From Escherichia coli (GTDB taxonomy: Bacteria > Pseudomonadota > Gammaproteobacteria > Enterobacterales > Enterobacteriaceae): a stretch of DNA of 64,000 nt. Of this stretch, positions 28,427 through 50,621 are shown one piece after another (positions within the stretch are counted from its first letter, which is position 1; each line of letters starts with the position of its first letter). Both the position numbers and the translations under genes were made by a program. The notes beneath the pieces were generated by a model. The model worked only from the letters and a program-made list of their open reading frames with translations. It was not told the DNA's origin and searched no databases. The stretch lies in NCBI RefSeq assembly GCF_016026235.1, contig NZ_CP065613.1; one strand, given 5' to 3'.

Positions 28427-28750
28427 CTACAGGCGGTGGCGATAATCGCTGGGAGTGCGATCAAACTGCCGACGGAAAACGCGGGAGAAGGTCTGCTGAG
28501 AGACATAACCCAGGTCCATTGCGATATCAAAAATCGGACGCTCGGTGGTGCGCAACTCAACGGCGGCCAGTAACAGACGGCGTTGACGAATGTAATCGCC
28601 AAGCGTCTGATGCGTCACCGTGCGGAACATCCGTTGCAGGTACCACTTTGAATAGCCTGATTTTTTTGCGACGACATCAATGTTAAGCGGCTGGTCAATA
28701 TGCTCGTCAATCCATGCGATAAGATCCTGAATAATTTTCTGATGGGACAT
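28427..28750 (-). CDS. soxS: Superoxide-response transcriptional activator SoxS (107 aa)
   Basis: Protein MSHQKIIQDLIAWIDEHIDQPLNIDVVAKKSGYSKWYLQRMFR... (AraC family). Confidence 0.97.
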   Translation of the reverse strand: MSHQKIIQDLIAWIDEHIDQPLNIDVVAKKSGYSKWYLQRMFRTVTHQTLGDYIRQRRLLLAAVELRTTERPIFDIAMDLGYVSQQTFSRVFRRQFDRTPSDYRHRL

Positions 28751-28835: not shown

Positions 28836-29300
28836 ATGGAAAAGAAATTACCCCGCATTAAAGCGCTGCTAACCCCCAGCGAAGTGGCGAAACGCAGCGG
28901 TGTGGCGGTATCGGCGCTGCATTTCTATGAAAGCAAAGGGTTGATTACCAGTGTCCGTAATAGCGGCAATCAGCGCCGATATAAACGTGATGTGTTGCGA
29001 TATGTCGCAATTATCAAAATTGCTCAGCGTATTGGCATTCCGCTGGCGACCATTGGTGAAGCGTTTGGCGTGTTGCCCGAAGGGCATACGTTAAGTGCGA
29101 AAGAGTGGAAACAGCTTTCGTCCCAATGGCGAGAAGAGTTGGATCGGCGCATTCATACCTTAGTGGCGCTGCGTGACGAATTGGATGGATGTATTGGTTG
29201 TGGCTGCCTTTCGCGCAGTGATTGCCCGTTGCGTAACCCGGGCGACCGCTTAGGAGAAGAAGGTACCGGCGCACGCTTGCTGGAAGATGAACAAAACTAA
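28836..29300 (+). CDS. soxR: Redox-sensing [2Fe-2S] regulator SoxR (154 aa)
   Basis: Protein [37 protein letters not shown]... (MerR family) with C-terminal [12 protein letters not shown] cluster motif. Confidence 0.97.
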
Positions 29301-29435
29301 AGCGCCACAAGGGCGCTTTAGTTTGTTTTCCGGTCTTTGTCTTTCTCTCTATCCCGCTGGTACACAGGAGGGTTTCCCCCGACGTCAACACACCTCATTC
29401 GAGCACGTGGTGGAGGTTCCGGTTGGTGTTGATGC
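29295..29435 (-). ncRNA. ryjA: Candidate small RNA (RyjA-like) convergent with soxR
   Basis: I recall a ~140-nt sRNA between soxR and ghxP on the opposite strand in K-12; the hairpin at the soxR stop (aaagcgccacaagggcgcttt) is followed by a U-rich tract on both strands. Ends not determined. Confidence 0.3.
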
Positions 29436-29845
29436 TTTAATTGTATGTCACCGGCGTTTCTTCGCCAGTGTAAAAGTATACTTTTTAGCCGCAATATTTT
29501 TGTCATCTTAGACGATTTTTTATCGCAATCCTCAACGGTGTACGGCTCGATAACGCTGCAATCTTGCGCATCGACGATAACGTTTGCGCATCAATTGCCT
29601 GGTTTTTCATCGTCAAGACAATAAAAGAGAAAAAAGCAGCAAACTTCGGTTGAAAAAGCCGCTATGATCGCCGGATAATCGTTTGCTTTTTTTACCACCC
29701 GTTTTGTATGCGCGGAGCTAAACGTTTGCTTTTTTGCGACGCAGCAAATTGTCGCAAACCTGGAGCAGGAAGATAACGTTTCGCTGGCAGGGGATTGTCC
29801 GCCACGCATCTTGACGAAAATTAAACTCTCAGGGGATGTTCTCTT

Positions 29846-48473: not shown

Positions 48474-50621
48474 TTACGCCAGTGCCGCTTCGCGCAGGCG
48501 AGTTTTCAACTTGTTGTACTCGTCAATCACGTACTGCTCGGCGGCACGCTGATCGGCGATCGGCTCGACGCGCACGGCGCAGTATTTGTATTCCGGCGTT
48601 TTCGTAATCGGGCTTAAGTTTTCGGTAACCAGCTCGTTACAGGCACCAATCCACCACTGGTAGGTCATGTAAATCGCCCCTTTGTTCGGACGATCGCTGA
48701 CCTGCGCACGGGTGATAATTTTGCCTTTACGCGAGTGCACCCAAACCAATGCCTCATCTTCAATACCCAGACGTTTGGCGTCTTCGGTATTGATTTGTGC
48801 GTAGCCAGGTTCATCAGCCAGCGCCGCCAGTGCCGCACAGTTACCGGTCATCGAACGGCAAGAGTAGTGACCAACTTCACGCACCGTTGACAGTACCATC
48901 GGGTACTCGTCGGTGAGTTTGTCGATTGGCGCTACCCAGTCGCAGGTGAAGAACTGCGCCAGACCGTTCGGGGTATCAAACTTCTCTTTAAACAGATAAG
49001 AAGTCCCCTGATCGGCATCTGAAGTATCGCGGCAAGGCCACTGAATGAAGCCCAGTTCGCCCATTTTCTCGTAAGTCGCACCGTAGAAATCCGGGCACAG
49101 ATGACGCAACTCATCCCAGATCTCCTGGGTGTTGTTGTAGTGCATCGGATAACCCATACGGGTGGCGATTTCACTGATGATTTGCCAGTCCGTTTTCAGA
49201 TCCCATTTCGGTTCAACTGCTTTGAAGAAACGCTGGAAGCCACGGTCAGCCGCAGTAAACACGCCTTCATGCTCGCCCCACGACGTTGACGGTAAAATAA
49301 CATCCGCCGCCGACGCGGTTTTGGTCATAAAGATGTCCTGAACGATGACCAGTTCCAGATCTTCAAAGGCTTTACGTACTGCCGACAGCTCCGCGTCAGT
49401 TTGCAGCGGATCTTCGCCCATAATGTACGCGGCACGCACTTCGCCATGCGCTGCGCGGTGCGGCAGCTCGCTGATGCGATAGCCGGTATGCGCTGGCAGG
49501 CTTTCCACGCCCCAGGCTTTGGCGAATTTCTCGCGGTTAGCCGGATCTTTCACATACTGGTATCCCGGATACGTATCCGGCAGCGCGCCCATATCGCAGG
49601 CACCCTGCACGTTGTTCTGACCACGAACCGGGTTTACACCCGCATGCGGCTTACCGAGGTTACCAGTCAGCATCGCGAGGCTGGTCAGAGAACGCACGGT
49701 TTCCACGCCCTGGTAGAACTGGGTTACACCCATGCCCCACAGGATGGCGGCGCTTTTCGCCTGGGCATACATCCGTGCCGCCTGACGAATCTCACTGGCG
49801 CTGACGCCGGTGATATCTTCAACCGACTCCGGCGTGTAGCCTTCAACGATTTTACGATACTCTTCAAAGCCTTCTGTACGGGAAGCGACGAACGCTTTGT
49901 CGTACAGATTTTCTTCAATAATGACATGGCCCATCGCATTCAACAGCGCGATGTTCGAGCCGTTTTTCAGTGCAATGTGCATGTCAGCAATGCGCGCGGT
50001 TTCAATTTTGCGCGGATCGCAGACGATAATTTTCGCCCCGTTACGTTTAGCGTTAATTACGTGATTCGCCACGATTGGGTGGGAATCCGCCGGGTTGTAC
50101 CCGAAAACGAACACTAAATCGGTATTATCAATTTCGTTAATAGCATTGCTCATTGCGCCATTACCGACCGATTGGTGCAGACCTGCAACCGATGGGCCGT
50201 GTCAGACACGAGCGCAGCAGTCAACGTTATTGGTACCAATAACGGCGCGCGCAAATTTTTGCATTACATAGTTGGTTTCGTTACCCGTACCACGCGAGGA
50301 GCCGGTCGTCTGGATGGCATCCGGACCGTACTTCTCTTTGATGGCGCTCAGGCGCTCGGCAACGTAATTCAGTGCCTCATCCCAGGAAACAGGTTCGAGT
50401 TTGCCGCCACGCTGGCGACGGATCATGGGGGTTTTCAGGCGCGGGGTCAGGATCTGGGTATCGTTAATGAAATCCCAGCCATAATAACCCTTCAGACACA
50501 GGGTACCCTGGTTGGTTTTCCCCTGCGCTGCCTCCGCCCGGACGATTTTGCCGTTATCGACGACCAGGTTGATTTTGCAACCTGATGCGCAATAGGGGCA
50601 AACCGTGACGACTTTTTTCAT
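48474..50621 (-). CDS. fdhF: Formate dehydrogenase H, selenocysteine-containing (715 aa; in-frame UGA at 50202-50204)
   Basis: Track ORFs 50202..50621 (139 aa, ...NNVDCCARV) and 48474..50153 (559 aa) are in the same frame, separated by one TGA and 16 sense codons; 139+1+16+559 = 715; molybdopterin-oxidoreductase Cys cluster MKKVVTVCPYCASGCKI at the N-terminus. Confidence 0.95.
50155..50201 (-). promoter_or_regulatory. SECIS element of fdhF
   Basis: mRNA immediately 3' of the UGA reads CACGGCCCAUCGGUUGCAGGUCUGCACCAAUCGGUCGGUAAUGGC, which forms the fdhF SelB-binding hairpin. Confidence 0.9.

Follow-up and report, generated by a model that had tools for sequence, protein, structure and literature searches.

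The window analysed here, the whole stretch of 64,000 nucleotides from Escherichia coli contig NZ_CP065613.1, carries at positions 29293-29433 of the minus strand the known small regulatory RNA gene ryjA (= sraL). The gene runs toward soxR and overlaps its end, ghxP lies on the other side, and soxS (28427-28750, minus strand) is placed divergently upstream of soxR. The following features make up the soxR end of the locus.

28836-29300, plus strand: soxR coding sequence of 154 aa, taken from the list of open reading frames and labelled soxR in the annotation of matching genomes; the ryjA 3' end extends over its last 8 nt.
29293-29433, minus strand: ryjA / sraL gene of 141 nt, with the 5' end an A at 29433 and the 3' end in the U tail at 29293.
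29294-29324, both strands: common terminator hairpin of ryjA (minus) and soxR (plus), a perfect 13-bp stem with a 5-nt loop and 6 GC pairs.

Described in 2001, RyjA/SraL is part of the K-12 annotation and has its own family in Rfam. An Rfam scan of the whole window matched RF01408, “sraL Hfq binding RNA”, at 29293-29433 of the minus strand over the complete model (1-142 of 142) with 153.3 bits and an E-value of 1.1e-34, the gathering score used as cut-off for this family being 39 bits. The E. coli K-12 reference record lists “ncRNA ryjA, b4459, small RNA RyjA” at 4277926-4278066 on the minus strand, between soxR and ghxP and with the soxR stop overlapped by 8 nt just as in the window. Alignment with b4459 gave identity at 141 of 141 positions (alignment columns 128-268); all five substitutions that separate the window from K-12 fall in the 127 nt upstream of RyjA and none within the RNA, and one of them (alignment column 107, window position 29454) lies in the promoter spacer. 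The two loci thus have the same sequence, ends, 8-nt soxR overlap, terminator, promoter elements and predicted structure, which establishes both the identity and the ends of the gene. Nothing speaks against this identity, and the remaining caveats concern mechanism. A sequence-only reading of this DNA had placed a small RNA of roughly 140 nt, ryjA, here as in K-12, and had staked its case on an alignment to ryjA and on a minus-strand promoter; the gene falls essentially inside the interval it had proposed (29295-29500), and both the alignment and the promoter were found. The locus is already known, together with its promoter and the terminator common with soxR.

Within the species the arrangement is nearly universal: of 5426 complete E. 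coli genomes, 5420 contain a 311-bp region around RyjA, almost all with 95-100% identity, and genomes annotated with PGAP carry the RyjA sequence without labelling the RNA. A separate observation concerns E. coli strain 405 (NZ_CM132948.1), in which only query bases 73-311 were matched in one of two places; the locus there seems to be interrupted approximately at the soxR/ryjA terminator (window position ~29322), possibly by an insertion.

The hairpin at the junction reads AAACTAAAGCGCC-ACAAG-GGCGCTTTAGTTT, and its 5' arm contains the TAA stop codon of soxR (29298-29300). It folds stably as RNA of either strand, at -23.1 kcal/mol (z -3.9) for the plus strand and -23.8 kcal/mol (z -5.9) for the minus strand, with 0 of 200 shuffled sequences as good in each case. 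The minus-strand hairpin leads into the T-rich tail TGTTCATCTT, and the terminator scan calls a terminator there; its plus-strand counterpart leads into GTTTTCC, or into TTTGTTTT if the stem is drawn shorter. On the plus-strand side the same scan made no call, since part of the T run is taken up into the longest stem. Stable on both strands and flanked by a T-rich tail at either end, the hairpin can terminate the two convergent transcripts. Two pairs of the terminator stem (helix 7) covary across genera. The earlier proposals that the soxR stop is embedded in a hairpin with U-rich tracts on both strands, and that this hairpin can terminate a convergent minus-strand transcript, hold in the sequence, in the folds of both strands and in the minus-strand terminator call.

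For comparison beyond E. coli, genomes representing one species each were searched for homologues with a pattern internal to RyjA, which matched at least 120 loci. Comparison of 120 listed loci with the window RNA by blastn retained 58; the other 62 were chance matches in GC-rich genomes and were removed. The 58 listed homologues represent about 20 genera, including Escherichia, Citrobacter, Enterobacter, Klebsiella, Raoultella, Kosakonia and Cedecea as well as Buttiauxella, Leclercia, Lelliottia, Franconibacter, Shimwellia, Atlantibacter and Mangrovibacter; Salmonella and others are absent from this sample. The alignment contains 57 sequences; that CGGGGGAAACCC and the stem core GCGCC/GGCGC do not vary in them is forced by the search pattern inside the RNA.

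These loci establish a conserved gene order. In all 58 listed loci soxR is convergent with RyjA, at distances from the RyjA 3' end to the soxR stop of -30 to +185 nt; many genera have no overlap, and the 8-nt soxR overlap is found, among the listed loci, in Escherichia, C. amalonaticus and a few others. On the other side ghxP is divergent, and its start lies either ~413-455 nt away (Escherichia and some Citrobacter) or ~1085-1205 nt away among the listed loci, the longer distance being that of most other Enterobacteriaceae and the ryjA-ghxP spacer of the window being 412 bp (29434-29845). In the one long spacer that was examined, that of Enterobacter cloacae (L009), an open reading frame with a GST_N domain was found; it matches the type of STM4267, the putative GST that flanks sraL in Salmonella (PMC3753932). 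E. coli differs from Salmonella in having no GST gene of the STM4267 type between sraL and ghxP; the gene is missing from Escherichia and some Citrobacter, and tblastn detected no remnant of such a gene in the window.

Several observations made in passing concern other parts of the window. Upstream of ghxP, at 29572-29790 on the plus strand, motifs of the AACGTTTGC type are repeated, with exact copies at 29579 and 29721 and near copies at ~29680 and ~29776; exact 9-mer copies of this motif type number 3 in the window where 1.08 would be expected, a difference that alone is not significant. Positions 29574-29589 match at 13 of 16 the palindrome ACGCAAACGTTTGCGT, which we take to be the PurR operator, and such a PurR-like site would suggest purine-repressor control of the guanine/hypoxanthine transporter. 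At 50155-50209 of the minus strand the whole Rfam SECIS_2 model is matched (87.1 bits against 70), which indicates a selenoprotein gene on that strand, presumably fdhF. Five matches to Rfam naRNA4, a palindromic unit of the REP/BIME type, lie at 36672-36742 and 47277-47686 (plus strand), and four of them form a regular tandem array with a spacing of ~113 bp at 47277-47686 (plus strand).

A scan for consensus sigma-70 promoters found none on the minus strand upstream of 29433. The candidate elements at the appropriate distance from the RNA start are the following.

29440-29445, minus strand: -10 hexamer TACAAT (-12 to -7 relative to the A at 29433), read from the sequence, with 5 of 6 consensus positions.
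29437-29439, minus strand: TAA discriminator (-6 to -4), A/T-rich and typical of RpoS-dependent promoters.
29463-29468, minus strand: -35-like CTGGCG, 17 bp upstream of the -10 hexamer, with 3 of 6 matches to TTGACA.

TACAAT fell below the threshold of the consensus scan because the -35 element is weak. The promoter is established by its position and by conservation across genera, its positions lying outside the homologue search pattern. Among the 57 Enterobacteriaceae sequences listed, T at -12 is kept in 52 of 57, and A at -11, A at -9 and T at -7 in 57 of 57 each; the discriminator has T at -6 in 50 of 57, A at -5 in 53 and A at -4 in 43; the -35 element has the family consensus CTGGCA in the same sequences, with C in 44, T in 50, G in 42, G in 55, C in 41 and A in 36. 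TTTACA at 29469-29474, which has a 5/6 match to the -35 consensus, was considered as the -35 element and rejected, as it lies 23 bp from the -10 hexamer. Silva et al. 2013 described the sraL promoter as combining a strong -10 with a TAA discriminator and a degenerate -35 (PMC3753932), and in Salmonella the gene is RpoS-dependent according to an rpoS mutant, lacZ fusions and RpoS ChIP (PMC3753932). The ryjA promoter of the window, with its near-consensus -10, TAA and weak -35, appears to be of the RpoS type and fits this published dependence. The expectation of a minus-strand sigma-70 promoter at 29430-29470 therefore stood as to location (29437-29468, conserved across genera) but not as to a consensus sigma-70 character. 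Further upstream, at 29478-29503 of the minus strand (-45 to -70 of ryjA), lies an A/T-rich, loosely palindromic block with the consensus GAAAAAnTTTnGnCnAAAAAA, conserved across genera, which may serve as an UP element or bind a regulator.

The RNA itself can be divided into segments of very different conservation, of which four are used below.

29385-29432, minus strand: 5' domain closed by helix 1 (nt 2-8 with 43-49), from the Rfam structure.
29400-29409, minus strand: candidate tig-pairing seed CACGUGCUCG (nt 25-34), from the local duplex search.
29412-29423, minus strand: near-invariant ACCGGAACCUCC (nt 11-22), mostly single-stranded and outside the search pattern.
29326-29352, minus strand: A/G-rich linker AUAGAGAGAAAGACAAAGACCGGAAAA before the terminator, near-invariant across genera.

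Folded as a single sequence, RyjA has a minimum free energy of -43.9 kcal/mol and is modestly better than shuffles (z -1.94). When the Rfam consensus structure, taken from Rfam rather than derived independently, was projected onto the alignment of 57 listed sequences, 94.8% of the cells were standard-paired, against 38-53% when the 3' partners were slid by 1-3 columns; the covariation score was 0.148 against 0.095 in shuffles, with 0 of 500 reaching it, and nine pairs have changes on both sides among these sequences. Helix 1 is the clearest case, with 4 of its 7 pairs double-changed in 6-19 sequences each and 96.7% of its cells paired. Conservation of the structure is thereby established.

Strictest conservation is found in ACCGGAACCUCC (nt 11-22), in GGAUAGAGnGAAAGACAAAGACCGG (nt 79-103) and in the central GUCGGGGGAAACCCUCC hairpin; that of the hairpin is partly forced by the search pattern, and the other two lie outside it. 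In ACCGGAACCUCC, CCGG and CCT are invariant and the remainder is at least 90% conserved in the 57 listed sequences; no role for this segment (nt 11-22) was found in the literature. For the 3' block, an (ARN)x motif for the distal face of Hfq has been listed for RyjA at nt 84-117, flanked by stem-loops (PMC5575007), and this motif may explain the conservation there. RyjA has ARN in 4 of 7 in-frame triplets, a count that 55% of shuffles reach and that is not above chance. By its A/G-rich (ARN)x linker between stem-loops RyjA has been grouped with OxyS, MgrR, MicM/ChiX and OhsC (PMC5575007), although their sequences are unrelated and their targets different.

Two targets of SraL have been validated in Salmonella. 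There SraL levels rise in stationary phase, Hfq stabilises the RNA, and tig, the gene for trigger factor, is repressed by it (PMC3753932); SraL is less abundant in an hfq mutant (PMC3753932), and the pairing with tig was validated by compensatory mutations in vivo and by gel shifts (PMC3753932). Silva 2019, as cited in two later sources, reports that SraL in addition pairs with the rho leader and protects it from Rho-dependent attenuation (PMC6582626; bioRxiv 10.1101/2024.02.02.578684). DsrA, ArcZ and RprA block Rho-dependent termination in the long leader of rpoS, and SraL is reported to act likewise on the rho leader (PMC6582626; bioRxiv 10.1101/2024.02.02.578684), with the difference that its rho-leader protection has been shown in Salmonella only. 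In E. coli, RyjA is polyadenylated and among the most up-regulated RNAs in a pcnB mutant (PMC5389530), and northern blots detect it, with a 5' end that is an A and carries no native NAD cap (PMC12956327).

Pairing of the E. coli RNA with these leaders was addressed by prediction. A windowed duplex search paired nt 25-34 with positions -29..-19 of E. coli tig as 7 bp, a 1-nt bulge and 3 bp (-16.4 kcal/mol), at a site ~7 nt upstream of GAGG; the extended duplex reaches -20.1 kcal/mol. This predicted 7+3 bp pairing just upstream of the Shine-Dalgarno sequence has the same form as the Salmonella SraL-tig interaction (PMC3753932). The duplex is not better than those with shuffled leaders (21 of 30 shuffles as good), and it is therefore consistent with the published site rather than independent proof of it. 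For rho, the best predicted duplex, at -287..-266, was matched by 0 of 30 shuffles and was not used because its position is probably outside the rho transcript, upstream of it in the region of the trxA terminator. Whole-length duplexes of RyjA with tig (-73.9 kcal/mol) and with rho (-62.1 kcal/mol) were discarded as unrealistic end-to-end pairings. A further predicted duplex, continuous over 12 bp with two G-U pairs, joins RyjA nt 36-47 (AUGAGGUGUGUU) to AAACAUACCUUAU at -244..-233 relative to the E. coli rho ATG (-18.0 kcal/mol); AAACAUACCUUAU belongs to the part of the rho leader close to its 5' end.

Taken together, these data are, with little room for doubt, best explained by a RyjA gene with an RpoS-type promoter and a hairpin common with soxR, the product of which likely acts in trans with Hfq on tig and rho. 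In this model ryjA would be transcribed from its own promoter (-10 at 29440-29445, TAA, weak -35 at 29463-29468), of the type recognised by the stationary-phase sigma factor RpoS, and transcription toward soxR would stop at the common hairpin, yielding an RNA of 141 nt that is complementary, in its final 8 nt, to the end of the soxR reading frame. The predicted fold of this RNA has a 5' domain with a covarying closing helix and two small hairpins in the centre; then come an A/G-rich linker and the terminator, which ends in the U tail. Following the Salmonella work, the RNA most likely acts in trans with Hfq, by which it is likely to be stabilised as the Salmonella literature describes. Pairing of its nt 25-34 with the tig leader, only a few nucleotides ahead of the ribosome-binding site, would lower the expression of trigger factor, and a second pairing, with the rho leader, would shield that leader from Rho-dependent premature termination; we infer both regulatory effects for the present E. 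coli strain by analogy with Salmonella. Turnover would probably follow 3' polyadenylation by PAP I.

The geometry of the locus also invites a reading in which RyjA acts mainly in cis, a duplex or transcriptional collision with soxR coupling stationary-phase signalling to the stability or termination of the soxR mRNA. The common hairpin makes the two 3' ends fully complementary over ~40 nt (29293-29333), 8 nt of the RNA fall within the soxR coding sequence, the terminator belongs to both genes, and convergence with soxR is kept at every listed locus. However, the spacing varies across the -30 to +185 nt given above, and the RNA and its terminator are conserved in the many genera without overlap, so that constraint on the soxR coding sequence does not account for their conservation; this argues against an obligatory cis-antisense role. 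The complementary parts are, moreover, locked in stable hairpins, the published validated targets are trans-encoded, and none of the papers that the literature searches found describes an effect of RyjA on soxR. A mainly cis-acting RNA is consequently regarded as very improbable. The description of the RNA as antisense-oriented, made at the outset, is accurate for the last 8 nt of the soxR coding sequence and for the common terminator, but does not extend further, as the published targets (tig, rho) are encoded elsewhere.

Still less credence can be given to two readings that dispense with a functional RNA. According to one, the locus is merely a bidirectional terminator with a non-coding spacer, and any transcript is noise; the weak z-score of the single-sequence fold (-1.94) and the lack of a consensus sigma-70 promoter in the scan are what it can draw on. 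Against this stand the match to the whole of a curated Rfam model and the gene annotation in K-12, the conservation of all 141 nt across ~20 genera among the listed loci with compensatory changes in the helices, the conserved -10 and -35 elements at the correct distance, and published northern detection and genetics (PMC3753932, PMC12956327, PMC5389530). With Rfam, annotation, conservation and published data all opposed to it, the noise reading counts as already refuted, and its probability is close to nil. In the other reading the locus codes for a small protein, either through a 62-aa frame at 29318-29506 (minus strand) or through a 74-aa frame at 29287-29511 (plus strand). Both frames exist mechanically, and as had been pointed out from the sequence only short frames cross 29320-29500, namely those of 74 aa (plus) and 62 aa (minus) and the tail of a 125-aa GTG frame antisense to soxR. 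Neither the 62-aa nor the 74-aa frame has a Pfam match, no coding sequence is annotated there in K-12 or in the identical strain, and the 62-aa frame starts upstream of the RyjA 5' end. In the cross-genus alignment, indels of 1 and 2 nt and a variable insert of up to 26 nt fall inside the frames, and conservation tracks the RNA helices, not codons. Because of the indels, the helix-wise conservation and the missing Pfam match, both small-protein readings were rejected as having practically no chance of being correct.

The cross-genus comparison bears on the age of the tig pairing. The candidate tig seed lies in the most variable part of the alignment, where insertions of up to 26 nt occur (helix 3); the seed region is replaced or lost in Klebsiella, Raoultella, Kosakonia, Cedecea and others, and the seed GUGCUCG is kept in ~35 of the 57 listed genera-level sequences. 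It follows that tig may not be the ancestral target, and since the best-conserved segments are not the tig seed, RyjA may have an older conserved target or partner.

The locus demonstrates that a real small RNA gene can be recognised from sequence and position alone, and it provides a clean worked example of a bidirectional terminator common to a protein gene and a convergent small RNA, although its discovery value is little. What the comparison adds is that the best-conserved parts of RyjA differ from those used for pairing with tig. It is tempting to hypothesize, as a tentative idea that we consider possible and somewhat on the doubtful side, that RyjA has an older, undescribed conserved target or protein partner contacted through nt 11-22 and 79-103, and that regulation of tig would be a lineage-specific addition to this more ancient role.
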